Shown in pieces: positions 1 through 45,478 of a DNA stretch of 46,424 nt; the first letter of the stretch is position 1, and each line of letters starts with the position of its first letter. Under the pieces are notes generated by a model. The model was not told the origin of the DNA. It searched no databases and saw only the letters and a program-made list of their open reading frames with translations. This DNA comes from Rhodospirillaceae bacterium. Its GTDB lineage: Bacteria; Pseudomonadota; Alphaproteobacteria; DSM-16000; Inquilinaceae. The translations under genes and the position numbers were made by a program. The stretch is from positions 1 to 46,424 of the forward strand of contig JAGQRL010000029.1 in the NCBI GenBank assembly GCA_020425485.1, in the 5' to 3' direction.

Positions 1-930
1 GCCAAGAACATGCGCATCACCGTCAACGGCGACCTGGCGCTGGGGGTGACGGCGAAGGACATGATCCTGGCGATCATCGGCACCATCGGCACGGCGGGCG
101 GCACCGGCCATGTGATCGAATATGCCGGCGATGCGGTGCAGGCACTTTCCATGGAAGGGCGCATGACCGTGTGCAACATGTCGATCGAAGGCGGCGCCCG
201 GGCCGGGCTGATCGCACCCGACGACACCACGTTTGCCTATATCAAGGGCCGCCCCATGGCGCCCAAGGCCGGCCAGTGGGAGCAGGCGGAAGCCTATTGG
301 CGCACCCTGCCCAGCGATGCCGGGGCGGCCTACGACAAGGAAGTCACGCTGGATGGCCCGGCGATCCCGCCCACCGTCACCTGGGGCACCAGCCCGCAGG
401 ATACGGTGGCGATCACCGGTGCGGTGCCCGACCCCGACAGCTTTGCCGATGCCGGCCGCCAGGCCGCGGCCAGGCGCTCGCTGGACTATATGGGCCTGAA
501 GCCCGGCACGCCGATGACCGAGATCCCGTTGGACAAGGTGTTCATCGGCTCGTGCACCAACGGCCGCATCGAGGATCTGCGGGCGGTTGCCGCGGTCTGC
601 GAGGCCCAGGTGAAGCAGGGCCGCAAGGTGGCCGACAGCGTGCACGCCATGATCGTGCCGGGCTCCGGCCTGGTGAAGGAACAGGCCGAAGGTGAGGGGC
701 TGGATGCGCTGTTCCGCGAGGCCGGGTTCGACTGGCGGGAGCCGGGCTGTTCCATGTGCCTGGCGATGAACGCCGACCGGCTGGAGCCGGGCGAGCGCTG
801 TGCCTCCACCTCCAACCGCAACTTCGAAGGCCGCCAGGGCCGCGGCGGGCGCACCCATCTGGTCAGCCCCGCCATGGCCGCCGCCGCCGCCTTTGCCGGC
901 CACCTGACGGATGTACGAGAGGTTGTGTAG
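1..930 (+). CDS. leuC: 3-isopropylmalate dehydratase large subunit, C-terminal part (5' end lies outside the window)
   Basis: The frame is open from base 1. Aconitase-superfamily motifs are present: [46 protein letters not shown]. The C-terminal tail is typical of LeuC. Confidence 0.95.
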
Positions 931-1080: not shown

Positions 1081-2742
1081 GTGCAGCGCATCCAACCGAC
1101 CCACCTGGCGTCACGGAGATCCCATCCTGCCGGCAGCACGCCGCTGCCGCCGGGCCTGCGCGCCAGCCTGGAAGCCCGCTTCGCCGCCTCCCTCGATGCT
1201 GTGCGCCTTCACCGCGGCAACACGGCCGCCGCCGTCGCCGGCCTGCTCGGTGCCGATGCGGTGGCGGTGGGCTGCCACATCCTGCTGTCGGCCGATCTGG
1301 CGGCGGTGGCGGACCCGGGGGACCGTGCCGTCCGCCTGCTGGCGCATGAGATCTGCCACACCCTGCAAGGCCGCCGCCCCGGCCCGCTGCATCTGGAACC
1401 GCCGGGAAGCCCGGCCGAACGGGAAGCCGAACGGGTGGCCCGCCGCGTTGCCCGCGGGCTCGCCGCCGGCCCCATCCGCCAGCGCCATGCCGGTATCGCC
1501 TGCAACACCTGGACGGCCGACCGCATCATCTACGAGCTGTCCTATGCGGCCAACGACTGGGCCGTGACCGCCGATGAGGAGATCGAGATCCTCGGCCTCG
1601 TCCGCCGCGATTCCAACTTCGACAAGACGGTCAACGACCTGGACAGCGAGGACATGCTGGACGCGCTGGTCTCCCGCGTCGACGATTCCGAAAATCGCAT
1701 CAAACTGATCCAGATGAGCGGGGCCAAGCTGACCACGCGCGCCGCCTTCGACAAGATGTTGAAGCAGATCAAGATCATGATGTTCGACGAAGGCGAAATG
1801 TTCATGGGCTTCAACTACGCCCAGACCTTCACCTTCAGCTTCGAAATGCACCAGGGCATGCGCGCCATGGGCGGGCTGGGCACCAGCACCGCACTGGACC
1901 CCAAGCACTACAAGAAGCTGTTCGGTGCCGCCGATCAGCCGTTTTCCGGCGTCGGCGCCACCGGCGTGAACCCGCATTCGCTGAGCATCGGGGTGACCGA
2001 CAAGTACAAGCTGGCCCGCGGCGAGAAGAACTACCCGAAGGTCTACCAGAAATACTCCAACCCGATCCCCGGCAGCCTGCCCGACTATCTGCGCACGCTG
2101 ACGCCGCGCCAGCGCAAGGACCAGGCGCTGGTGCTGATGAAGCAGGCCATCGTCACCAGCATGCCCCACTCCTACGTGAACGGGCTGCCGACGCGGGCGG
2201 ACATCGCCAAGCTCGCCGGCAAGAAGCACAACCTGGAACCCGCCCTGATCGCCGGCTTCATGCTGGCCGAACAGCGCGACCAGTCGAAGAACGAGGACGC
2301 CAAGGACCTGACCGCGGCGCTCTCGATCATGGAGGGCAACACCTCCATCGGGCTGGGCCAGGTGGTGGTTTCCACCGCGCGCAAGAACGAGCTGTTCCGC
2401 GACCTGCTGTGGCCGGCCACCTGGGGGGCCCTGTCGCACAAGGACATCGCCCATCTGCTGGTGTGCGACGAGTTCAACATCTTCGCCACCGCCCGCTACA
2501 TCAGGAAGGTCGCCGACGCCGCCACCAAGCTGGACATCGGCAAGCTGCCCAACACCAAGGCCAAGTTCCCGCTGATCAACCTTCCGGCCTACGCCAAGCA
2601 TTCCAAGGATTGGCCGGTGCACAACATCATGGCGCTGGGATCGGAATACACATCGACCGCCTGGGACGACACGCTGTCACCAGGCTGGGGCGGCTTCGTC
2701 TACGAAGCCTATGGCGACGTCCTGGCCGCCGCGATCTTCTGA
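1081..2742 (+). CDS. DUF4157 (zincin HExxH) N-terminal domain protein with a possible lysozyme/SLT-like C-terminal domain; polymorphic-toxin-like
   Basis: GTG start with GGGAGG 8 nt upstream. The N-terminus matches the DUF4157 pattern (LPPGLRASLEARFAASLDAVRLHRG ... LLAHEICHTLQG), with HEICH at nt 1345-1359. The C-terminal region (aa about 372-540) has FMLAEQRDQS ... SIGLGQV ... NIFATARYIRK ... ALGSEYTSTAW, which resembles the E / GLxQ / aromatic motifs of lytic transglycosylases. Confidence 0.7.
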   Translation: MQRIQPTHLASRRSHPAGSTPLPPGLRASLEARFAASLDAVRLHRGNTAAAVAGLLGADAVAVGCHILLSADLAAVADPGDRAVRLLAHEICHTLQGRRPGPLHLEPPGSPAEREAERVARRVARGLAAGPIRQRHAGIACNTWTADRIIYELSYAANDWAVTADEEIEILGLVRRDSNFDKTVNDLDSEDMLDALVSRVDDSENRIKLIQMSGAKLTTRAAFDKMLKQIKIMMFDEGEMFMGFNYAQTFTFSFEMHQGMRAMGGLGTSTALDPKHYKKLFGAADQPFSGVGATGVNPHSLSIGVTDKYKLARGEKNYPKVYQKYSNPIPGSLPDYLRTLTPRQRKDQALVLMKQAIVTSMPHSYVNGLPTRADIAKLAGKKHNLEPALIAGFMLAEQRDQSKNEDAKDLTAALSIMEGNTSIGLGQVVVSTARKNELFRDLLWPATWGALSHKDIAHLLVCDEFNIFATARYIRKVADAATKLDIGKLPNTKAKFPLINLPAYAKHSKDWPVHNIMALGSEYTSTAWDDTLSPGWGGFVYEAYGDVLAAAIF

Positions 2743-2785
2743 GCGCGGTTCGGGAGGTGTGGAGGGGCTGGGGGCGGTGCAAAAC

Positions 2786-5524
2786 TCAGTCGAAAATCGC
2801 TTCCGCGCGTTGCTTCTTCGTGAGTCTGACGCCGTCGAGGTTCGCGCGTCTTAGATCAGCGCCGTCAAGGCTGGCCCCGACAAGATTGGCGTGACCAAGG
2901 TTCGCACCCTCAAGGTTCGCACGCCGAAGGTCTGCACAGTAGAGCTTTGCGTCCCGTAGGTTTGCGCCACCGAGGTTCACGTTTCCAAGATTCGCACGCC
3001 GAAGATTGGCGCCCACAAGGTTGGCACCCACGAGATTGGCTCTCCGTAGGTTCGCGCGCCGCAGATTGGCAAGTCCGAGCTTTGCACGTCGCAGGTCAGC
3101 GCGTCTCAGATCCGCGTGCTGGAAATCTGCACGCCGCAGATCCGCGCCGCCCAAGTCAACGCACCAGAGGCCCTGTCGAGCGAGTGGCATCCCACCGAGC
3201 AGTGTCAAACTGAGAGGCATGGCCACCGCCGCCAGCCCCCGCCTCAAACGGCCTATGAGCTTGGCTGCAGCGCAAGGATCGTCACCCCAATCTAGCGTCC
3301 AGACCGATTCTGTCGCCAGAGCACAGGCATTTATTGCTGCCAGCAGCGCCTCTTCTGCGTTCAAGGCACGAGCGACTGCCTGTCGATACGACCTAGCCCC
3401 GTCAAATGCCGGCATACCTTCGTCCAGATTGAGCTTGAAGAGCATTTCAAGCGTAGTCTTCCAGTTGATTATTTTGTTGGTCTCCGGTTGTTGAGCATGT
3501 CGCCATCTGATTTCATCTCGAAGAAAAGCAACAATCTCGCGCGTCACCGGCTGCAAACCACACATACGGAGCCATTTTTTCAGGCCCATCCTTAATAAAT
3601 CCTGGTCCTTTCCATCTCCTGAGGACTTGAATATTGTATCAATTTCACGCACAAGCCGGCGGGCAGTCAGATATTCTCGAAATGATCTATGGGTAAATTC
3701 GAAGGCCGGGTTCCTACCAATACTCTCTACACTGTGCATATAGGAAGCCGCGAGCAGACGAAGCGCTTGCCCGCTCTCATCCATAAAAGTATTTATCTTT
3801 TCGCCAAGCTCGTTCGTAGAACATAGCGCAACTGCCTGCCTAATTGTTGCAGTCCTTCCGTTGCCATACCATGCCGCCAACGCGAGCGTTTCCATGATTT
3901 CATCAAAATCTTCGCCAAGCTCAATCCTAGTTTTTCTACGGCCTCCGCCGTGCATGCCCTTGGACACTTGTGTGAATAGCAAACGATAGACACCGTTCAG
4001 ATTTGTTCTTTCTCGAGCAATCTCTTGATTGTGGTAGCCGCTGAGGACGAGGAGATAGAGCAACAGTGGTTCGGAAGACAGCGAGTCTAGGCGTGAGTCG
4101 AGAAGGCGTCGCCGCGCAGCGCCGTCTGCCTTGGGCTTGAGCGCGGTATAACGGCGCCACCAATCCTCGCGTTGATCGGCGCTTGTACCTGTCAGAAGAC
4201 CATGGGGATCGTTCAGAACATTTCGTTCTGCGCTACCGACTCTGTAATAGTATCGTAGAACCTCAAGATTCCGCGGCCCTTTCGGTGATGCTGTCTTCGC
4301 TACCGCCTGAATAACTGCTGGGCGACCCGTTACCAGTGCTTGTACAAGACAACGACTTTGATTCCAAATCTCTAACTGATCATGGATTCTATCCAGCAGA
4401 CGCTCAGCATCCCTGGCTGCCTCGCGTTCCTCGCCTCCAAATTCGTCGAGTCCGTCGAAGATCAATAAATATCGACGCGAGGCACTTGCAGGATTCCAGT
4501 CGGTAAACATTCGCATGGGGAAATGGGCTGAAGCGCACCATTCTCCGAGGTATTGATCAAGGCTCTGCCCAAGCCTTTCCTTAATGATAAGGCTGCGCTG
4601 AAGGGGTACATGGACAACGCGGACAACATTTTGCTCTGCTAGTTCCGAAGCTAACATTCGCGTGAAAGAAGACTTGCCACTGCCCGGACCACCGCGAACC
4701 AGCATGACAGCATGGTCTTTGTCAGGTTTCTCAAGCCAGCTCTGCACGGCGCTGTGCAAATCTACAACAGTTGCTGATTTTTCATCTTGTTTGTACGCAG
4801 CCCGCAACCGGACATAGATGTCCTTCAACGAAAAGGTCTCTCCGAAAATCGGAGTTTCGCGAAGCTTGATCAATTCAAGTCTGTGGCGCGCCCAGGCTCG
4901 TTCGATCTGATCGGCTCTAGCGAACGGGCTGCTTAGTGCCTCCAGAACAGGCTTGTACGCCTCGGCATGCCGGCGCCATTCGTCGTGCAGCGCAGCAGCC
5001 CAAAAACTGTCAAACCGCCCGACGACCGTTCGGACCTCTATGGTCGGCAGATGAATGTCGCGCAGCCAGGATTCAAATGTACGTTTGATCGCTTGCGCTA
5101 TTGGAAGTGCTACTGGCTGATCAAAAAAATCGACTGCGATCTCGAACTCCGCATCCTTCAGATTGACGTTGGGAAGCCTACCTAATTCTTTACCGTAGTC
5201 GTCTTGTATCTCGGGATGCATCTCCACTACTGGAGCCATTAGTTCTAAGATTGCTTGGCCAGCAGCACGATGGACCAGCGTCCAAGCTCTGGATTCAGGG
5301 CGCATGCCCTCTACGAATTCCGCAGGGATTTCGAGCACACTGTCGATGACGCTGGCGATGGACTCGCTACCGGCGGGGTACAACGCTATTCCATTGGCGA
5401 TCGCTCGGCCGAGGTGTTTGAAGGACCTCTTTAGTCCAGTGACTACGTCATCCTTGTCGAAACGCTTGGCGACTAGCGATGTCGCTTTAGTCGTTGCATC
5501 GAGTTTCTGGGCGTCGTCATCCAT
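2786..5524 (-). CDS. NACHT/STAND P-loop NTPase with C-terminal pentapeptide-repeat domain and an unassigned N-terminal domain (NLR-like)
   Basis: 912-aa ORF. Walker A GGPGSGKS (aa 278-285, nt 4670-4693) and Walker B LLIFDGLDEF (aa 352-361) are present. A helical region follows, then 23 consecutive A(D/N)LxR pentapeptides. GC is about 50-52% in sampled lines versus about 70% in flanking genes. Confidence 0.85.
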   Translation of the reverse strand: MDDDAQKLDATTKATSLVAKRFDKDDVVTGLKRSFKHLGRAIANGIALYPAGSESIASVIDSVLEIPAEFVEGMRPESRAWTLVHRAAGQAILELMAPVVEMHPEIQDDYGKELGRLPNVNLKDAEFEIAVDFFDQPVALPIAQAIKRTFESWLRDIHLPTIEVRTVVGRFDSFWAAALHDEWRRHAEAYKPVLEALSSPFARADQIERAWARHRLELIKLRETPIFGETFSLKDIYVRLRAAYKQDEKSATVVDLHSAVQSWLEKPDKDHAVMLVRGGPGSGKSSFTRMLASELAEQNVVRVVHVPLQRSLIIKERLGQSLDQYLGEWCASAHFPMRMFTDWNPASASRRYLLIFDGLDEFGGEEREAARDAERLLDRIHDQLEIWNQSRCLVQALVTGRPAVIQAVAKTASPKGPRNLEVLRYYYRVGSAERNVLNDPHGLLTGTSADQREDWWRRYTALKPKADGAARRRLLDSRLDSLSSEPLLLYLLVLSGYHNQEIARERTNLNGVYRLLFTQVSKGMHGGGRRKTRIELGEDFDEIMETLALAAWYGNGRTATIRQAVALCSTNELGEKINTFMDESGQALRLLAASYMHSVESIGRNPAFEFTHRSFREYLTARRLVREIDTIFKSSGDGKDQDLLRMGLKKWLRMCGLQPVTREIVAFLRDEIRWRHAQQPETNKIINWKTTLEMLFKLNLDEGMPAFDGARSYRQAVARALNAEEALLAAINACALATESVWTLDWGDDPCAAAKLIGRLRRGLAAVAMPLSLTLLGGMPLARQGLWCVDLGGADLRRADFQHADLRRADLRRAKLGLANLRRANLRRANLVGANLVGANLRRANLGNVNLGGANLRDAKLYCADLRRANLEGANLGHANLVGASLDGADLRRANLDGVRLTKKQRAEAIFD
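2819..3163 (-). repeat. Coding tandem array of 23 pentapeptide repeats (15-nt periodic DNA) inside the NACHT gene
   Basis: Translation reads CVDLG GADLR RADFQ HADLR RADLR RAKLG LANLR RANLR RANLV GANLV GANLR RANLG NVNLG GANLR DAKLY CADLR RANLE GANLG HANLV GASLD GADLR RANLD GVRLT. Confidence 0.9.
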
Positions 5525-5599
5525 GGTAGGCGGGCTCGTCCAATAGGTTTCGCTCTTAGCGAGCGTATCCTGTTGGAGCGCGCCAGAAAAGGATGCCCC

Positions 5600-8179
5600 T
5601 CACTCTCCCGACAGCACGGTGCGGAGGCGTTGGGCCAGTTCTTCCATCCGGTAGGGCTTGGACAGCACGGTGGCGCCGAACTCGCTTTCCAGCCCGTCGC
5701 CGGCGGCCGTGGCCGCATAGCCGGTGGTCAGCAGGATCTTCAGCTCCGGGTGGCGCCGCCGCGCCTCGCGCGCCAGCTCGAAGCCGCTCATCCCGCCGGG
5801 CATGACGATATCGGTGAACAGCAGGTCGACTGCGGCGTCCTTCGCCAGGTGGTCGAGTGCTGCCTTGGCGTGGCCGACCGCCTCCACCTTGTAGCCGAGA
5901 TCGATGAGCTGGGCGCCCACCGCCTCGCGCAGTTCCGGGTTGTCCTCCACCAGCAGAACGCGCTCGCCGCCGCCCGGTGCGGCCCCTTCGGCCACCGCGC
6001 TCGCCGGATGGTCGCCGTCCGGGGCGGAGGTGCGCGGCAGGTAGATCTTCACCGTCGTGCCGTGGCCAAGCTCGCTGTAGATCCTCAGATAGCCACCCGA
6101 TTGCTGGGCAAAGCCGAACACCATGCTGAGGCCGAGCCCGCTGCCGCGCCCCACCTCCTTGGTGGTGAAGAAGGGCTCGGTGGCGTGCTCCAGCACCTCC
6201 GGCGACATGCCGGTGCCGGTGTCGGTCACGGCCAGCATCACGTAGTCGCCGGGCGACACGTCCTGGTCCTTGGCGGTCACGGTGTCGTCGATGGTGAGGT
6301 TGGCGGTCTCGATCACCAGGGTGCCGCCGCCGGGCATGGCATCGCGGGCGTTGATGGCCAGGTTGAGGATGGCGTTGTCCACCTGGGACGGGTCGGCGAT
6401 GCACCACCACAGCCGCCGGCCCGGCGCCACCTTCACCACGGTGGCTTCGCCGAGCATGCGGGTGAGGATGGCTTCCAGCTCCGGCAGGCGTTGGTTGAGG
6501 TCGATGGCTTGCGGTTCCAGCGGCTGCTGGCGGGCAAACGCGAGCAGCCGGCGCGTCAGTTCCGCCCCGCGGAGCGCGCTGTCCATCGCCGCCTGCAGCC
6601 GCTTGGCGACCCGCGTATCGCCCTGCACCTGCGGTTCGATCAGATCGAGGTTGCCGACGACGACGCTAAGCATGTTGTTGAAATCATGGGCGATGCCGCC
6701 GGTGAGCTGGCCGATCGCCTCCATCTTCTGGGCCTGGCTGAGCTGCTTTTCCATGGCGATCCGCTCGGTCAGGTCGCGCACGGTGGCGGCAACCACCGTT
6801 TCCTGGCCGGAGGCCAGCGGCGTCAGGCTGATGTCGGCACGGAAGGTGGAGCCGTCCTTGCGGCGGCCGCGCAGGTCCAGGCTGCCGGCGGCCATGGTGC
6901 GCCGCTGCGGCGCGTTCACATAGGCGTTGCGCAGGCCGACATGGCTGCGCCCCAGCGTCTCCGGCACCAGGATCTCCACGGGCTGGCCGACGATCTCATC
7001 GTGGGCGAACCCGAAGGTTGCTTCGGCCTGCTGGTTGACGTCCTGGATCTTGCCGTCGGCCCCGACCATGACGATGGCGTCCGGCGCATAGGCGAAGAGG
7101 TCGCGGAACTTGGCCTCGATGTTCTCCCGCGTGCGCGCCATGGATTCCGCCAGGCGCACCGCCCGCCCCCGCGCGCTGGCCAGCGTCCACACGGTGCCGA
7201 ACACCAGAACGGTGACGACCAGTCCGCCCACCAGCAGCACGGTGGAGAGCGGCGACTGCATCTCCTCCACGAAGGCGGGCGTGGAGCGGAAGGCGATGGT
7301 CCAGGGCCGGCCGGCCACCTCGATGGTGGCGGTCTGCACAAGCTCGGGCGACAAGGCGGCGGCGGCGGCGTCAACGTTGGAGAAGAGCAGTTCCGCCTCG
7401 TCGGCGGCCGGACCGTCGAACACTTCCAGGTCGATCTGCGGGAACTCGCCCTGCAGGATGCCGCGCATCAGGTCGGTGGCGCGGAAGGGGCTGTAGACGT
7501 AGCCGGACAGTGCTTCGCGCCGCGCCTCGGCGGTTTGCGGATCGCTGCCCGGCGCATAGACCGGCAGGTAGAGCAGGAAACCCGCCTGCCGCTCTTCGGT
7601 GATCTCCTGCAGCAGCTCCACCCGGCCCGACAGGGCGGCCTGCCCGGTGTCGCGCGCCCGCTCCATGGCGGCGCGGCGGATCTCGTTGGAAAACATGTCG
7701 TAGCCGAAGGCGGCGCGGTTGCGCGCGTCGAACGGCTCCAGAAAGACGATGGAGGTCAGCTCCTCGCGGTCGCCCGGCGGCCGGATGTCGTAGTCGGGGA
7801 AGCCGTCGGCGCGCACCGCCGCCACATGGTTCGCCCGCTCGTCGGGCCGAATCCGCTGGGCGAAGCCGACCCCCTGGATGCCCGGATATTCGCGGTCGAG
7901 ATCGAGGAGGTAGACGTAGTTGCGCCAGTCCGCCCGGGTGACCGGCTGAAACACCGAAAACACCGCCACGCCGCCGCGCAGCACCTGTTCGTAGGCGGCC
8001 ATGCGGTTGACGATGCGCGCCTCGATCAGCCGGATGCGGCTGGCGAAAGCTTCTTGCATCACCTGGCGTTCGAGGTCGCGTTCGACCCGCCAGACGACAA
8101 GGGTCACCGCCAGCGCTACGGCGGCGACCGCAACTGCGAGAAACCGTCGACCGCCGACTTTCTCAATCAAATCATCCAT
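5600..8179 (-). CDS. Hybrid sensor histidine kinase (TM - CHASE-like periplasmic domain - TM - PAS - HisKA - HATPase_c - receiver)
   Basis: Motifs present: H-box GGIAHDFNNML, N-box NLAINARDAM, G-boxes DTGTGM and GSGLGLSMV, receiver VLLVEDNPELR ... DLLFTDIVMPGGMSG ... ILLTTGY. Two hydrophobic segments flank a periplasmic domain of about 270 aa. Confidence 0.9.
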   Translation of the reverse strand: MDDLIEKVGGRRFLAVAVAAVALAVTLVVWRVERDLERQVMQEAFASRIRLIEARIVNRMAAYEQVLRGGVAVFSVFQPVTRADWRNYVYLLDLDREYPGIQGVGFAQRIRPDERANHVAAVRADGFPDYDIRPPGDREELTSIVFLEPFDARNRAAFGYDMFSNEIRRAAMERARDTGQAALSGRVELLQEITEERQAGFLLYLPVYAPGSDPQTAEARREALSGYVYSPFRATDLMRGILQGEFPQIDLEVFDGPAADEAELLFSNVDAAAAALSPELVQTATIEVAGRPWTIAFRSTPAFVEEMQSPLSTVLLVGGLVVTVLVFGTVWTLASARGRAVRLAESMARTRENIEAKFRDLFAYAPDAIVMVGADGKIQDVNQQAEATFGFAHDEIVGQPVEILVPETLGRSHVGLRNAYVNAPQRRTMAAGSLDLRGRRKDGSTFRADISLTPLASGQETVVAATVRDLTERIAMEKQLSQAQKMEAIGQLTGGIAHDFNNMLSVVVGNLDLIEPQVQGDTRVAKRLQAAMDSALRGAELTRRLLAFARQQPLEPQAIDLNQRLPELEAILTRMLGEATVVKVAPGRRLWWCIADPSQVDNAILNLAINARDAMPGGGTLVIETANLTIDDTVTAKDQDVSPGDYVMLAVTDTGTGMSPEVLEHATEPFFTTKEVGRGSGLGLSMVFGFAQQSGGYLRIYSELGHGTTVKIYLPRTSAPDGDHPASAVAEGAAPGGGERVLLVEDNPELREAVGAQLIDLGYKVEAVGHAKAALDHLAKDAAVDLLFTDIVMPGGMSGFELAREARRRHPELKILLTTGYAATAAGDGLESEFGATVLSKPYRMEELAQRLRTVLSGE

Positions 8180-8472
8180 TGGGGGAATTGTGCAGAGCTT
8201 GCCGGAATTTTCTCAATGTAGCGCCGCCCTCTGAGGGCCACAACTGGAACGTGGGCAGAACTTTGAGTAGAACCGACCTGGCTCTCACTATTATATTTGC
8301 CCAGGGGCGTCGAAATCCCAATATTATCGCTAGATCTTAAAATTTTGTTTGAGGTGATGGCATTCATTCCGGGCGATTCGCCGGCCAAGGTGCGCCGGAT
8401 GATCGCGGCGCGGCCTATTGCAGCGGTTTGCAGGCAATACCATTGGGGATGCCTACCCGCCGGCGCCCGGCC

Positions 8473-9057
8473 TCAGGCCCCGCCGGGCCGCAGGGTGGCG
8501 CGGATGGTGTCCATCACGTCGGTAAGCTGCTGCAGGTCGCCGGTGGCCCGCTTGGCCAGCAGTGCACCCTGCAGCGCGCAGAACAGGAAGCGCGCCATCT
8601 TGTCCGGGCGGTCGGCCAGGCGGAACAGCCCGGCGTCGGCACCGCGCCGCAAGATGCCCTCCAGCCAGCGTTCATGGCCTTCGAAGAACAGCGCCAGTTC
8701 GTGGCGCATCTCCACCGGCAGGGCCATGGCCTCGCCGGCCAGGGCGCCGCACAGGCACACCTTGTCGGGCGTGCCGGCAAAATCCAGGTACGGGCCGAAA
8801 TAGATCTCCAGCGCGTCCCACACCGTCTTGTCGGGATCGGCGTCCACACCGGCCAGCACCGCGGCGAAGGTTTCCCGGTAGCGCCGTACCACGGCTTCAC
8901 CCAGCGCGTTCTTGGACGGGAAGTGGTGGACGATGCTGGGCTTGCGGATGCCGACCTTGAGCGCGATGTCCTGGAAGCTCATGGCGGAATAGCCGCGGGT
9001 CTGGATCAGCTCCTGGGCGGCATCGAGGATCTGGTTGCGGCGATCGGGCGCGGTCAC
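8473..9057 (-). CDS. TetR/AcrR family transcriptional regulator
   Basis: The HTH region is RNQILDAAQELIQTRGYSAMSFQDIALKVGIRKPSIVHHFPSK. I chose the GTG at 9057 as the start. The longer ORF to 9666 has an R/G/P-rich N-terminus and overlaps the cupin gene. Confidence 0.8.
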   Translation of the reverse strand: MTAPDRRNQILDAAQELIQTRGYSAMSFQDIALKVGIRKPSIVHHFPSKNALGEAVVRRYRETFAAVLAGVDADPDKTVWDALEIYFGPYLDFAGTPDKVCLCGALAGEAMALPVEMRHELALFFEGHERWLEGILRRGADAGLFRLADRPDKMARFLFCALQGALLAKRATGDLQQLTDVMDTIRATLRPGGA

Positions 9058-41906: not shown

Positions 41907-42962
41907 CTAGTAGTCTCTCGCGACTCTGAAGCCGATATCGTTGAGGCCAGTGGTCGAACTCCAGGGAAATCGGATCATGGTTCGAACCGTCATCAACGGA
42001 CGGTATGCCCATGAAACGCCAAAGGGCATGCGCTGAGAGCAATCGCCCTCTAGCGAAGGGCGCGCCGTCTCCGACGGATATCTGAACATCTGCCCATTCC
42101 AGCAATCCTCTGTCCACTCTCGAACATTCCCGGCTATGTCATAGAGGCTGCGGAAATCCGGGTCAAACTGATGAACGGGAGAGGTATGGCTAAATCCATC
42201 CTGACAGCCAGCCAACTCCCAGCCTTGATAATATTCCTCAGCAGATTGGTCCGGAATATTAGCTCCAGGACAGACGGTTTCTGCAAAGAATATTGTAAAA
42301 TATGTCTCTAAGCTTGAAGAGTACTCGACTTCAGCTTCCGTCGGCAGGCGATAGGACTGAGATGTCAGGTTCGAGAGCCATTGTGCGTAGGCCTGGGCGT
42401 CGTCCCAACTCACGCAGACCACCGGGTGATCCTGCCCTTGCGAAAACCCCGGATTCTGCCAGTTCAAACTCAGCGATGGGTCATATGACACCGGGATCTC
42501 GCGGCCGACAGCGTTGGTCCAGGCGCTGCACTGGTCGGCACTCCTGTGCCCGGTAGCGGCAACAAATGTCGCGTACTGCTGGACCGTGACTTCGGTCCGA
42601 GCGAGGGCAAACCGGCCGATCGAGGTGTAGGTTACCGGTGCATCGTCGTCGATCACCCGGCCCCCAACGATGGTGGGCGGATTGGGCATCGTGCCCGACT
42701 GGATGGCGACCATCTCAGGACAAGCCGGACAATCGCGAAAGGTTTGCCCGGGTACAGGTGCCGGCCTTGACGGATACTCCGGTTGGCCATAATCCGGACC
42801 AAGAAGATCTTCGAAGGATTGCGCGACGGCCGGCGCATTCAGCGTCGCAAGAACAACGACGGCCGCCAATGCAAAGATCGTTCGCCCCCAGATAGATCGA
42901 TTGCCCATCCGGCGGATAGTCGCACGCGCTGGCGATGACGTAGGCCCCTTCTTGTCAACCAT
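41907..42962 (-). CDS. Secreted FGE-sulfatase-fold (SUMF1/EgtB/PvdO family) protein lacking the FGE catalytic Cys pair
   Basis: Signal-like segment IFALAAVVVLATLNAPAVAQS. Family motifs FRDCPACPEMVAI, ARTEVTVQQYATF, HPVVCVSWDDAQAYAQWLS, YRLPTEAEVEY, GNVREWTEDCW, IGFRVARD. The start is 5 nt after the kinase stop. An alternative ATG lies at 42908. Confidence 0.8.
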   Translation of the reverse strand: MVDKKGPTSSPARATIRRMGNRSIWGRTIFALAAVVVLATLNAPAVAQSFEDLLGPDYGQPEYPSRPAPVPGQTFRDCPACPEMVAIQSGTMPNPPTIVGGRVIDDDAPVTYTSIGRFALARTEVTVQQYATFVAATGHRSADQCSAWTNAVGREIPVSYDPSLSLNWQNPGFSQGQDHPVVCVSWDDAQAYAQWLSNLTSQSYRLPTEAEVEYSSSLETYFTIFFAETVCPGANIPDQSAEEYYQGWELAGCQDGFSHTSPVHQFDPDFRSLYDIAGNVREWTEDCWNGQMFRYPSETARPSLEGDCSQRMPFGVSWAYRPLMTVRTMIRFPWSSTTGLNDIGFRVARDY

Positions 42963-42967
42963 GGTCG

Positions 42968-45478
42968 CTACCCCCTCTCATAGCAGGCAAGATTGTCCGG
43001 TGATCCCAGAAGCCGGAGCGCCCGGTCGGCCTCCTCCAGTCCCTGGGCTGCCGCAAGTTCCAGCAGCCGGCGCGCCTCCCCCCGGTTCATCGCAACGCCG
43101 GTGCCGGTGGCGTACATGCTGCCTAGGATATGTTGGGATTGTGCTTGCCCCGCCTCCGCCGCCAACTCGACGACCAGCACGCGTTGCTGAGGCGTCAGTT
43201 CGCCCGTGTCCGCTTCGCCAATCTCGGACTGGAAAGCTCGTATGGCCGCCCTGCTTGCCGGACCGATGATCCCATCATTTCTACCGGAATAGTAGCCAAG
43301 CCCTTGCAAGGCTTGCTGAATAGCGCGCGGTGGAATCGATGCCGCGCGATCGAGCGCCGCTGCGTCACGGGGATCTTCGCCACCGGCTTGGCGCCCGATG
43401 GAAATGGCGGCGGTGGCTATCTGCGCTTCTAGATGCCACACGTCGTCCGCGTCCACCGACAGGAGCCGCCGGTACCAGCCTTCGGCCTCCTCAATGCGGC
43501 CAAGGCAATGGGCGATCTGGCCGGCAACCAGCATCAGCTCCGGCGCCTGAGCTTCGGCCGGAAACTCGGTGAAGACGGCGTCCAGCCTCGATGCCGCCTC
43601 GGGAAGGTTACCCACACGGATTGCTTGCCAAACCTCGGCAAGGCGCCTCGAAGGTAGACTGCCGGTGGCAGATGCCATGGCGGCGACAGCCTCATCGATA
43701 CTGTCTGCGACCTGCTGCGCCAGCTCGTCGTCTCCACTGGTCTGCGCCCGCGCGTTCGCCAACTCCAGGACTACCGCCGACTGGGACAGTCGGCCTTCTT
43801 CGAACAGTGCCTCACCTGCCTGCATCAATGTGCCGGCACTCTCCAGGTCGGGAACAGCGGGGGCCAAGGCCTCAATGCCAGCGGGAGCAGGATCGACCGC
43901 GAGACCACTGGCAGGACCAACGGGCGCACCGCCATCTGGCCTCTCCGGCTCCGGTTCGGCGGCGGTCAACTGGTCCACCTCGCCATCGGCACTTGCAGCA
44001 GCCGGCTCCGGTGCAGCCACAGGGGAGCGCGTTGGCGGGTCGGCGGGCACCGGAACGATGTCCAAGTTGTTTGGCGGCGGAGGCATTTCCTGCGGTGCCG
44101 CCGTCGGTGGTATGGCCACAACGTCGCTTTCGTTGACCTGCCCCTCGGCAAGCGACAACGGCACAGGATCGCCGTCCTCGATGCCGGCGAATTCATCGTG
44201 GTCCGCCACCGTGATTGGATCGGACGGCGGCTCCTGGGTCGGTGTAAGCTCCTCAGCGGCGGTTCCGGTGTCAGGCTCCGGCTCCGATGGGGAGATGGCA
44301 CCGCTTTCGCCATCCCATCCCCGATCATCCAAAGACGATTGGCGCTCAACGTCCGGCCCCATCGCTTCCTCCGACGTGTCGGGGACCGCCGGCCACCAAC
44401 TTGCGATGACAACCGCCAAAGACGCCACCGTTGCCCCACCGCCCACGGACGCCCAAAGCACAGCCCGGGAGTGAGGCCGCTTGCTCTCCGGTTCGTCCAC
44501 CGGCGTTGGCCGGTCCTGTTGGCCGATCGCCGACCTGAACACCTCTGCAAACGCACTTGCACTACCGAACCGGTCCGCCGGATCGCGAGCGGTTGCCTTG
44601 GCCACCGCGTCATCAAGCCAATCCGGCAGATCCGGTCGCAGCGTCTTGGGGCGAAGGCAATCGGTCTCAAGCTTGGATTTGATGATTTGGGGAGTTGTCT
44701 TGCTCGAAGCGAACGCTCTGCGCCCGGTCAGGATTCGGAACAGAACGAGGCCGAGGCTGTAGATATCCGACCTCGCATCCCCCTCCTGTCCTTGATCATA
44801 AAGCTCCGGTGCGATGTATACTGTTGTCCCCACCGGCGAGCCGGTAAGAGTCAATCTGGTGTCATTCTCTATTCTGGCAATTCCAAAATCCGCCAACTTG
44901 ATCGACCGATCAGCGCCCACCAGTATGTTGTCCGGCTTGATGTCTCGGTGATACACACCTTTGGCGTGAGCGTGCTGAAGCGCATCGAGGACTGTCGAAG
45001 CAATTCGCACCGCTTCGTCCACTGTGGCCGGCTTGCCGACGGGGCAGAATGCCTCTAGCGACTGCCCGTCCACATACTCCATGACGAGGTACGGAGCCCC
45101 GTAGAGCGGCGGGCCATCTTCCGCACTGCCAGTGTCGTACACTCTCACGATTGCATTGTGGTCGAAGCGGCCCACCGCCTTGCGTTCCACATTGAACCGA
45201 CGCAGCAGATCGGCCCATTGGCTACTATTGGCCTGGCGGTCCGGATGGACCACCTTGATAGCAACAGGCCGGCCCATGCCTGCGTCGTAAGCTTTGAGCA
45301 CGTTCCCCATGCCGCCCTTGCCGATCCACGCTTCGATTCGATAGCGACCGATCGTCTTCGGCAGGACATGATCGCGGTTTTTTGACTCGAGTTGCGAATC
45401 GCTGAAGGTTTCGTTGGCTTTGCTGCGCTTCTCAACCAACGTTGTCGCTCCGCCAGACGGCCCACCACACTTTTTCAT
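42968..45478 (-). CDS. Hanks-type Ser/Thr protein kinase, single-pass receptor with Pro/Glu-rich linker, helical repeats, PG_binding_1 and Sel1-like C-terminal modules
   Basis: Kinase motifs IGKGGMGNV, VAIKV, HRDIKPDNIL, DFGIA, YIAPE. TM at aa 339-362. PG_binding_1-like IQQALQGLGYYSGRNDGIIGPASRAAIRAFQ. Sel1-like LGSMYATGTGVAMNRGEARRLLELAAAQG. Confidence 0.9.
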   Translation of the reverse strand: MKKCGGPSGGATTLVEKRSKANETFSDSQLESKNRDHVLPKTIGRYRIEAWIGKGGMGNVLKAYDAGMGRPVAIKVVHPDRQANSSQWADLLRRFNVERKAVGRFDHNAIVRVYDTGSAEDGPPLYGAPYLVMEYVDGQSLEAFCPVGKPATVDEAVRIASTVLDALQHAHAKGVYHRDIKPDNILVGADRSIKLADFGIARIENDTRLTLTGSPVGTTVYIAPELYDQGQEGDARSDIYSLGLVLFRILTGRRAFASSKTTPQIIKSKLETDCLRPKTLRPDLPDWLDDAVAKATARDPADRFGSASAFAEVFRSAIGQQDRPTPVDEPESKRPHSRAVLWASVGGGATVASLAVVIASWWPAVPDTSEEAMGPDVERQSSLDDRGWDGESGAISPSEPEPDTGTAAEELTPTQEPPSDPITVADHDEFAGIEDGDPVPLSLAEGQVNESDVVAIPPTAAPQEMPPPPNNLDIVPVPADPPTRSPVAAPEPAAASADGEVDQLTAAEPEPERPDGGAPVGPASGLAVDPAPAGIEALAPAVPDLESAGTLMQAGEALFEEGRLSQSAVVLELANARAQTSGDDELAQQVADSIDEAVAAMASATGSLPSRRLAEVWQAIRVGNLPEAASRLDAVFTEFPAEAQAPELMLVAGQIAHCLGRIEEAEGWYRRLLSVDADDVWHLEAQIATAAISIGRQAGGEDPRDAAALDRAASIPPRAIQQALQGLGYYSGRNDGIIGPASRAAIRAFQSEIGEADTGELTPQQRVLVVELAAEAGQAQSQHILGSMYATGTGVAMNRGEARRLLELAAAQGLEEADRALRLLGSPDNLACYERG

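Follow-up and report, generated by a model that had tools for sequence, protein, structure and literature searches.

Bacterial NACHT proteins were surveyed by Kibby et al. (bioRxiv 10.1101/2022.07.19.500537), who defined the NACHT N-terminal Helical (NNH) domains and sorted NACHT modules into 25 clades. Clade 9 appears in Table S1 of that study as NNH3 or NNH4 followed by a NACHT module and pentapeptide repeats, with members in Nostoc, Anabaena, Vibrio, Runella, and others. Rare clade 9 variants listed there combine EAD10 with NNH3, NACHT, and pentapeptide repeats or add a REC domain (C-terminal, in one protein) or Ntox49, and the study classed pentapeptide repeats as "antigen-receptor type" sensors. 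Other NACHT clades were shown to be antiphage, stand-alone genes being the rule. The domains given for the 27 experimentally tested proteins are LRR, HEAT, REase, TIR, TM, NNH1, and NCH1 only (i.e., no NNH3 or pentapeptide), and the tested genes in the available part of Table S2 come from Klebsiella, E. coli, and Vibrio. Here, we describe a gene of the clade 9 layout from a Rhodospirillaceae bacterium (assembly GCA_020425485.1, contig JAGQRL010000029.1; 46,424 nucleotides, the whole of which is referred to as the window). It encodes a 912-amino-acid (aa) protein with NNH3, NACHT, and pentapeptide parts. With moderate confidence, we read this protein as a single-polypeptide switch of the NLR (nucleotide-binding leucine-rich-repeat receptor) type, within the signal transduction ATPases with numerous domains (STAND), that most likely acts in biological conflict (i.e., antiphage or anti-mobile-element immunity).

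Judged by its sequence and its structure model, the window protein is a bona fide NACHT protein, predicted to be an NLR-like NACHT/STAND NTPase with a C-terminal pentapeptide beta-helix. The start codon of the gene is backed by an MDDDAQ start that is kept in the two other alleles described below. The Pfam NNH3 family (PF22735) matched aa 42 to 233 (E = 2e-17; 64.3 bits versus a gathering cutoff of 27), with a disordered segment (residues 1 to 23) and pre-NACHT strands (aa 234 to 270) on its two sides. The NACHT family (PF05729) matched aa 273 to 380 by a modest margin (32.8 bits versus a gathering cutoff of 26.7), and the Pentapeptide family (PF00805) matched the repeat run with an E value of 3.8e-32. 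These Pfam matches stand in the order described for clade 9, and on the basis of its architecture the protein would be placed in that clade. An initial annotation of the window had called the N-terminal module unassigned and possibly undescribed. This did not hold, given that the domain is named in Pfam and the full architecture is listed in Table S1 of bioRxiv 10.1101/2022.07.19.500537. The layout and the N-terminal domain are already catalogued, and the gene adds a member to a known clade.

The catalytic motifs of the NACHT module are intact. GGPGSGKS agrees with the GxxxxGK[ST] form of Walker A in NACHT STAND NTPases, and the NACHT signature D[GAS]hDE is present as DGLDE (aa 357 to 361). 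In an alignment of 65 homologs, G278, P280, G281, G283, K284, S285, D357 to E361, G400, and R401 were invariant; all five DGLDE positions were invariant both there and in an alignment of 50 full-length representatives. The winged-helix motif FTH(K/R)SFxEYLTA was similarly conserved in the 65 homologs, H612 and L619 being invariant and F610, T611, and K613 to F615 nearly so.

A full-length AlphaFold2 (AF2) model of the protein (predicted local distance difference test [pLDDT], 84.7; predicted template modeling score, 0.85) began with a bundle of helices at the N terminus; an alpha/beta nucleotide-binding domain came next, then helical and winged-helix domains, and a helical arm led to a regular beta-helix. 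Helices were modeled in the arm region at aa 613 to 635, 641 to 655, 662 to 678, 684 to 702, 713 to 738, and 752 to 762. The model thus has the NLR-type succession of nucleotide-binding domain (NBD), helical domain 1 (HD1), winged-helix domain (WHD), and helical domain 2 (HD2). Searched with Foldseek, it matched NOD2 (5irm), NLRC4 (4kxf), NLRP3 (7pzc), and NAIP with a probability of 1.0 and E values of about 1e-9, as well as pentapeptide proteins; the structural alignments to NOD2, NLRC4, and NLRP3 spanned 750 to 1,000 columns. A sequence-profile search of the PDB with the window protein returned pentapeptide proteins only. The repeat run (VDLGG to VRLTK) comprises 23 units in a single register, or about 5.75 coils, and is preceded by two extra degenerate units (aa 779 to 788). 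It was modeled as a regular beta-helix with one strand per five residues (pLDDT, 94 to 98). No signal peptide or transmembrane segment was found in the protein, which is predicted to be cytoplasmic.

Most of what the initial annotation had seen in the protein agrees with these results. The 912-aa frame, the Walker A motif, and the helical arm before the repeats were borne out by translation, motif reading, and the AF2 model, as was the description of a stand-alone NACHT/STAND NTPase with a pentapeptide beta-helix. Walker B is present but was placed one residue too early (aa 352 to 361), and the same shift applies to the pentapeptides (given as aa 788 to 902), the number and single register of which were correct. 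Of the modeling and Foldseek searches that it had proposed, the one with the full-length model returned NLR-like matches, but the one with the NNH3 model gave none below E = 0.3 in the PDB or the viral BFVD library.

We then considered how far NNH3 belongs to this combination. A word-indexed search retrieved 90 close homologs, the three domains being shared by nearly all of them, and identity to the best nonself match was 47%. A profile of the N-terminal 268 residues matched 1,398 of 1.84 billion cluster representatives (each standing for a 50%-identity cluster), 673 of them at E values of ≤1e-30, and the NNH3 match began within the first ~64 residues in all of the best 150 of the 1,398. Among 50 full-length representatives, Pfam detected NNH3 in 50, Pentapeptide in 50, and NACHT in 37 (E ≤ 1e-4), and the Walker motifs were invariant in all 50. 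No enzymatic effector domain was found by Pfam in these 50 proteins, the sole extra domains being one TPR and one GAF. NNH3 is therefore a constant N-terminal partner of the NACHT-pentapeptide combination rather than an effector module that is exchanged.

An AF2 model of NNH3 (37 sequences; pLDDT, 79.8) was all-alpha, with about ten helices, and no Pfam family other than NNH3 matched the 37 NNH3 fragments at E values of ≤1. Likeness to the BAR domain, ClyA/AhlC, or the nuclear-receptor ligand-binding domain was rejected as generic helical-bundle noise (template modeling scores, ≤0.2). Membrane insertion by NNH3 was likewise rejected: the domain has no transmembrane-grade segment, and the highest 19-residue Kyte-Doolittle value in the protein (1.7) falls at aa 764 to 782, which is the beta-helix cap and lies outside NNH3. 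Across the family, the arm (mean pairwise identity, 0.34) and NNH3 (0.32) are among the most variable parts. What this analysis adds to the catalogued architecture is the strict coupling of NNH3 to pentapeptide repeats without an enzymatic effector, the lack of a structural relative of NNH3 in the PDB or BFVD, and the set of three alleles at one chromosomal position that is described below.

The gene stands out from the window in composition. Its G+C content is 54.1%, whereas the kinase gene next to it has 69.1% and the window as a whole 67.2%; the contrast reported in the initial annotation (about 50 to 52% versus about 70 to 73%) is thus real, although its values were a few points off. The G+C content at third codon positions (GC3) is 0.541, versus a mean of 0.894 (standard deviation, 0.027) over 31 other window genes (z = -13). 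The composition of the gene is foreign to the host genome.

The closest homolog of the window protein, P0002, is encoded in the Rhodospirillaceae metagenome-assembled genome (MAG) GCA_020638575.1 (contig L084, 10001 to 12835) in the same gene order as in the window (i.e., ABC transporter, HlyD, TetR, MAPEG, SDR, cupin, TetR, CHASE hybrid kinase, NACHT, and aconitase). The flanking proteins of the two loci are 82 to 95% identical, but the NACHT proteins are only 46% identical. Nei-Gojobori synonymous divergence (dS) between the loci was 0.22 for aconitase, 0.49 for the kinase, and at least 3.3 for the NACHT gene, a value that is saturated and inflated by the GC3 shift between the alleles. The ratio of nonsynonymous to synonymous divergence (dN/dS) of the NACHT gene between alleles was about 0.1 to 0.2. 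Fast protein evolution in situ was rejected as the source of the 46% identity, given that dN/dS is low and the excess divergence is synonymous (GC3 of ~0.9 to 0.54).

Nucleotide homology between the window and L084 covers the kinase gene as well as the 75-bp spacer, fades within the NNH3-coding part, and returns weakly in the last 45 codons. At the protein level, identity to P0002 is 60 to 85% over aa 81 to 200 of NNH3 and 26 to 57% over aa 241 to 760, with values of 26 to 34% in parts of the nucleotide-binding and helical domains; third-position identity is ≤0.5 throughout. The window allele groups with P0002, P0004, and P0003 when NNH3 and the arm are compared. Over the nucleotide-binding domain and helical domain 1, P0002 is no nearer to it than distant lineages are (0.41 to 0.45).

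A third allele, P0004, lies on a 4.3-kb Logan contig (L089, 829 to 4227) that carries the same kinase 3' end and 75-bp spacer. It shows ~77% nucleotide identity to the L084 NACHT allele up to about aa 680, versus ~90% in the kinase part; the corresponding dS values are 1.14 for the NACHT gene and 0.25 for the kinase. Beyond ~aa 680, an unrelated segment of low G+C content (about 0.42, versus ~0.6 upstream) encodes the C-terminal 350 aa, with a short pentapeptide run and TIR_2 (aa 852 to 978), and the drop in G+C content points to a recombination joint near aa 680. This allele has an in-frame stop at codon 74 in the NNH3 region and was called as 73-aa and 1,031-aa open reading frames; the stop could reflect a pseudogene, a sequencing error, or a programmed event. 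The P0002 allele has a GC3 of mostly 0.75 to 0.95, with values of 0.40 to 0.65 at aa 681 to 840 (i.e., where the arm ends and the pentapeptides begin), which suggests a separate recombination patch in the sensor part. The spacer is of equal length in all three alleles and is partly conserved: a CATCCTTTTC decamer just past the kinase stop and GCTCGC are kept, and the remainder diverges. It could be a conserved regulatory or recombination element.

A protein search with the kinase found one close ortholog (P0092; 83% identity), in the same MAG as P0002, and the next-best match (P0093; 54% identity) lay in an unrelated context. Against the GTDB genome collection, the kinase query returned paralogous histidine kinases, with no ortholog among the matches listed, and JGI metagenome scans with the NNH3 protein and with a 35-nucleotide pattern from the kinase 3' end gave no matches. 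The identical window protein was recovered on three independent metagenome contigs.

Our reading of these comparisons is that the site has long been occupied by the NNH3-NACHT-pentapeptide family, that its alleles either predate the host split by far or came in from elsewhere, and that both whole genes and C-terminal modules have been replaced there by recombination. The low-GC3 window allele is most likely a recent import by recombination (i.e., xenologous replacement) into a locus that already held a family member. Horizontal acquisition, as proposed in the initial annotation from the G+C contrast, thus applies to the window allele, but the locus itself was occupied by the same gene family beforehand. 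A conserved syntenic position had been named there as evidence against a defense role, and the gene does hold one position in three related genomes or contigs. However, the alleles at that position are 46% identical to the window protein, and one has a different C-terminal module; together with a saturated dS next to flanks of 0.2 to 0.5, this points to allelic replacement at a variable immune-type locus and not to a housekeeping gene. A bolder version holds that the kinase-to-aconitase interval is a fixed-position, allelically hyperdiverse NLR locus that exchanges alleles and C-terminal cassettes by recombination under purifying selection and, in addition, that NNH3 is a new nonenzymatic executioner or assembly domain activated by NACHT oligomerization. 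We put this forward tentatively and consider it rather doubtful as a whole. If true, bacteria would have in such a locus their own counterpart of the polymorphism seen at plant R genes or fungal het loci.

The repeat domain varies strongly among the 65 homologs, with 10 to 61 pentapeptide units per protein and a net charge of -22 to +10 (median, -5); it is acidic in 51 of them. The window domain (23 K/R versus 13 D/E; net charge, +10) is the most basic of the 65, together with that of P0034. A wide spread of repeat number and charge is expected of a ligand-binding surface, and the basic charge argues against a DNA-mimic role like that of Qnr or MfpA for the window allele.

NLR and STAND proteins generally rest as autoinhibited monomers; a ligand on the repeats leads to nucleotide exchange, oligomerization, and induced proximity of the N-terminal domains. 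By analogy, the window protein would rest as a nucleotide-bound monomer kept closed by the helical arm and the C-terminal beta-helix. The trigger would be the binding of an invader-derived or invader-perturbed molecule to the hypervariable beta-helix, and given how unusually basic this helix is in the window protein, an acidic protein or a nucleic acid would be the likeliest ligand. Binding would lift autoinhibition, and nucleotide exchange at Walker A and B would lead to oligomerization of the NACHT modules. This would cluster the NNH3 bundles, which would give the output, by induced proximity acting either as a nonenzymatic executioner or as a platform for a host factor. NNH3 may be a constant output module because the family almost never carries an enzymatic effector and because the domain is always N-terminal and always found with the repeats. 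What we infer is that the protein has an immune function, that the repeats sense the ligand, and that NNH3 gives the output; for the immune or conflict role, the evidence is circumstantial and consists of the hypervariable locus, the sister allele with a TIR fusion, and mobile or conflict genes near some homologs.

The genomic contexts of the homologs bear on the last of these points. In other genomes, the homologs are single genes in unrelated neighborhoods, matching the stand-alone habit reported for bacterial NACHT proteins. One homolog (L086) lies beside an nSTAND1 gene, a transposase, and SRAP; another (L090) adjoins a GT4-conflict glycosyltransferase; and a third (L091) adjoins an IS21 fragment. 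Several others are located among housekeeping genes, and these contexts lend modest support to an association with defense islands.

Several results weigh against an immune role or against the mechanism outlined above. Two homologs (L092 and L093) stand alone among housekeeping genes, with no recognizable defense islands. The window locus itself shows no tRNA gene, bracketing repeats, or integrase, and the neighbors of the gene are a kinase, a muramidase, and aconitase, which is not the setting of a defense island or of mobile cargo. A search of the window protein against PADLOC-DB v2.0.0, a check that the initial annotation had proposed, gave nothing significant (best match, mad8; E = 1.2e-3, P-loop region only), and no bNACHT tag appears in the clade 9 rows of the available part of Table S1 (bioRxiv 10.1101/2022.07.19.500537). 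The hypervariable-locus argument is based on three alleles (i.e., the window, L084, and L089), and the GC3 shift contributes to the dS on which it draws. As for NNH3, the alignment, hydropathy, Foldseek, and Pfam analyses revealed neither a transmembrane segment nor invariant polar residues of catalytic appearance, nor did they turn up a structural analogue, and its designation as the output module is therefore reached by exclusion alone. A few relatives add EAD10, TIR, REC, or Ntox49, which implies that NNH3 is not always sufficient or is not an effector at all; judging by the rare TIR or EAD10 fusions, it may instead be a scaffold. Matches in NCBIfam fell below threshold as well (DS8_antiphage, 13 bits versus a cutoff of 790; pentapeptide models).

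Other functions would accommodate some of these results. The protein could be a nonimmune signaling or regulatory STAND switch (compare MalT, GutR, and AfsR), perhaps one coupled to the CHASE-PAS hybrid histidine kinase, whose gene lies 75 bp upstream, but we regard this as unlikely. The adjacency, strand, and 75-bp spacing of the kinase and NACHT genes are equal at all three loci, and no sigma-70-type promoter or intrinsic terminator consensus was found within positions 2500 to 5900 of the window, so that the two genes may be cotranscribed. The three loci come from close relatives and are wholly collinear, however, and their shared adjacency is accordingly of little weight; the homologs in five other genomes have no kinase beside them. 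One clade 9 protein with a C-terminal REC domain (bioRxiv 10.1101/2022.07.19.500537), one family representative with GAF, and the nonimmune bacterial NLR-type proteins documented in bioRxiv 10.64898/2026.09.02.748808 are consistent with such a switch, but Pfam detected no DNA-binding or other regulatory output domain in the protein. Moreover, 46% identity, a saturated dS, a foreign GC3, and a TIR swap are not expected of the partner of an 83%-conserved kinase. It is very improbable that the gene is a functionless passenger, recently imported and heading for decay. Its strongly foreign codon usage, the in-frame stop in the L089 allele, and the lack of a PADLOC call would suit a passenger, whereas the intact 912-codon frame with every catalytic and structural motif conserved, the low dN/dS between alleles, and the recovery of an identical protein on three independent metagenome contigs speak for a maintained gene.

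The roles of the two ends of the protein could also be reversed: after oligomerization, the beta-helix would be the effector, as a solenoid that mimics DNA or competes with it and so blocks enzymes that bind DNA (e.g., gyrase or phage replication proteins), and NNH3 would be the sensor. MfpA and Qnr, which bind gyrase as DNA mimics, both match the C-terminal domain in sequence or structure searches, the repeat domain is net acidic in most homologs, as in DNA mimics, and no other effector was found in the 50 representatives. For other NTP-dependent conflict systems, Kaur et al. 2020 (PMC7159879) assigned pentapeptide repeats to the "effector position," noting that DNA-binding proteins may be inhibited by them. 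The window beta-helix, however, has the opposite charge of a DNA mimic, and its NCBIfam scores for Qnr and MfpA are far below the cutoffs (e.g., 41.9 versus 240 bits). Repeat number and charge vary as in a sensor, C-terminal repeats are the sensor in characterized NLR/STAND proteins and pentapeptides are classed accordingly in bioRxiv 10.1101/2022.07.19.500537, and in L089 the TIR effector follows a shortened repeat, suggesting that the repeat is not the output there. Taken together, we consider the reversed arrangement improbable. A receptor for self/nonself or kin discrimination (compare the fungal het NLRs), in which an allelic series under balancing selection is linked to interbacterial antagonism, appears decidedly improbable. 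Deeply divergent alleles at one site, with a dN/dS of about 0.1 to 0.2 and a dS far above that of the flanks, are the signature of long-lived lineages, and a polymorphic-toxin-like muramidase (eCIS_core and Tse3) that is absent from the sister locus lies beside the window gene. The muramidase, however, has a native GC3 (0.90) and is not kept with the NACHT gene in L084 or in five other homolog neighborhoods; the protein is cytoplasmic, without a signal peptide or a transmembrane segment (the hydropathy peak of 1.7 being the beta-helix cap); and the window allele, with its low GC3, looks like an import from another lineage and not like an old resident polymorphism. An NLR-type switch in antiphage or anti-mobile-element immunity, with the repeats as the sensor, remains our preferred reading. 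Table 1 gives the coordinates of the gene, its parts, and the adjoining kinase gene.

Table 1. Features of the NACHT gene and its upstream neighbor in the window
Feature	Amino acids	Window positions (nucleotides)	Strand	Basis or remark
Complete gene, 912-aa NNH3-NACHT-pentapeptide protein		2786..5524	-	ORF (open reading frame) list and translation; ATG start, stop codon 2786-2788
NNH3 (NACHT N-terminal Helical domain 3), all-alpha bundle	42-233	4826..5401	-	Pfam PF22735
NACHT nucleotide-binding domain	271-405	4310..4714	-	Pfam PF05729 and motif positions
Walker A, GGPGSGKS	278-285	4670-4693	-	Motif reading
Walker B, LLIFDGLDEF	353-362	4439-4468	-	Motif reading
Sensor-1 motif, TGR	399-401		-	
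Helical domain 1 and winged-helix domain of NACHT module	406-635	3620..4309	-	Alignment, model secondary structure, structural alignment
Helical arm (HD2-like spacer) between NACHT module and repeats	636-778	3191..3619	-	AF2 model
Pentapeptide-repeat beta-helix, 23 A(D/N)LXX units	789-903	2816..3160	-	Register analysis, Pfam
Short C-terminal helix after repeats	903-911	2792-2815	-	
Spacer, CHASE hybrid-kinase stop to NACHT start, 75 bp		5525..5599	-	Three-way alignment
CHASE hybrid-kinase gene (CHASE-PAS hybrid histidine kinase), upstream		5600-8179	-	

Regarding the neighboring genes, the muramidase is a 553-aa protein encoded at 1081 to 2742 (plus strand), between the aconitase and NACHT genes. 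It carries eCIS_core (formerly DUF4157; aa 21 to 99), a Tse3 N-terminal domain, and a Tse3 peptidoglycan-muramidase catalytic domain (E = 3.6e-54). In the collinear L084 locus, this gene is absent, and 44 bp separate the NACHT and aconitase stops. The muramidase looks like a polymorphic-toxin-type gene inserted beside the NACHT gene; no obvious immunity gene was seen next to it. A second low-GC islet at 41907 to 45478 (minus strand) consists of two genes, which encode a 351-aa FGE-sulfatase-domain protein (GC3, 0.63; z = -10) and an 836-aa Ser/Thr kinase with TPR, PG_binding_1, and Sel1 (GC3, 0.69; z = -8). The kinase domain matches PADLOC PD-T4-6 models (E = 2e-78), which may reflect generic kinase similarity only. 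Pairs of a kinase and an FGE-sulfatase-type sensor are known from conflict systems, and the islet may be another imported defense or signaling pair. The second TetR-family protein of L084 matched window positions 8491 to 9057 (minus strand) by tblastn with 86% identity, and the plus-strand open reading frame at 8297 to 8803 (no Pfam match) is probably spurious, with a TetR regulator gene there instead.

NLR-type receptors are common to animal, plant, fungal, and bacterial immunity, and the tested bacterial members cover few clades and are mostly enterobacterial. The clade considered here is large (i.e., the NNH3 profile matched ~1,400 sequences, each representing a 50%-identity cluster) and widespread and lacks a recognizable enzymatic effector. 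If the ligand of the repeats and the output of NNH3 were established, bacterial immunity would gain a new type of sensor and perhaps also one of effector. Natural chimeras for the mapping of specificity are available in the set of three alleles, where in one case the whole gene was replaced and in another the C terminus was exchanged for TIR. For annotation, PADLOC-DB v2.0.0 misses the family even though Pfam names all three domains.

The window protein is closest in layout to the clade 9 examples from Anabaena sp. (WP_168505314.1) and Nostoc sphaeroides (WP_118166576.1), which share NNH3, NACHT, and pentapeptide repeats and a similar length (850 to 1,050 aa). In the clade 9 rows available, the NNH3-bearing examples are cyanobacterial and those with NNH4 come from Vibrio, Nitrospirae, and other phyla. 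The window gene, by contrast, is found in a high-GC Rhodospirillaceae genome; the clade is defined there by bioinformatics only. The main text of a 2026 STAND survey makes no mention of pentapeptide repeats. With bNACHT01 (clade 14), bNACHT11, bNACHT25, and bNACHT09 (TIR-NACHT), the window protein has in common the NACHT module and the single-gene organization. Walker A is required for defense by bNACHT01 (bioRxiv 10.1101/2022.07.19.500537) and is intact in the window protein. Proteins of the bNACHT01 type, however, have a short SNaCT C-terminal domain, no repeats, and other N-terminal domains, and their similarity to the window protein is limited to the P-loop. Avs1 to Avs5 follow a common logic of an effector, a STAND NTPase, a C-terminal repeat sensor, and ligand-induced oligomerization, but their NTPase modules fall outside the NACHT subclade, their sensors are TPR-like, and their N termini are nucleases, proteases, or SIR2, unlike the NACHT, pentapeptide, and NNH3 parts seen here. 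Membership in Avs was rejected: PADLOC gave no match to any Avs model, and the protein has a pentapeptide beta-helix as its sensor and NNH3 at its N terminus. The initial annotation had invoked both the Avs and bNACHT families; the gene is not an Avs, nor is it among the experimentally tested bNACHT genes in the available parts of Tables S1 and S2.

The repeat domain resembles HetL, Np275/276, Rfr23, Qnr, and MfpA, which have the same A(D/N)LXX repeat and right-handed quadrilateral beta-helix; its identity to Np275/276 and to designed beta-solenoids is 35 to 44%. Those proteins are single-domain proteins of 150 to 250 aa, whereas the window repeats form one protein with a NACHT module. The DNA mimics Qnr and MfpA are acidic, unlike the basic window domain, and membership in either was rejected on its net charge of +10 and its scores against the NCBIfam equivalog cutoffs (Qnr, 41.9 bits versus 240; MfpA, 34 versus 360). 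Plant coiled-coil (CC) NLRs (ZAR1 resistosome) and fungal HeLo/HELL-NLRs have an all-helical, nonenzymatic N-terminal domain that acts after oligomerization. We offer the likeness as a functional analogy only, as a hypothesis, given that NNH3 has no sequence or fold similarity to these domains and no evident membrane-inserting helix. Animal NLRs are 11 to 14% identical to the window protein, have an LRR sensor in place of pentapeptides, and use CARD, PYD, or BIR adaptors that are unrelated to NNH3. Nevertheless, NOD2, NLRC4/NAIP, and NLRP3 are its best structural matches over NBD, HD1, WHD, and HD2, and they have in common with it the D-G-h-D-E Walker B and the winged-helix histidine.

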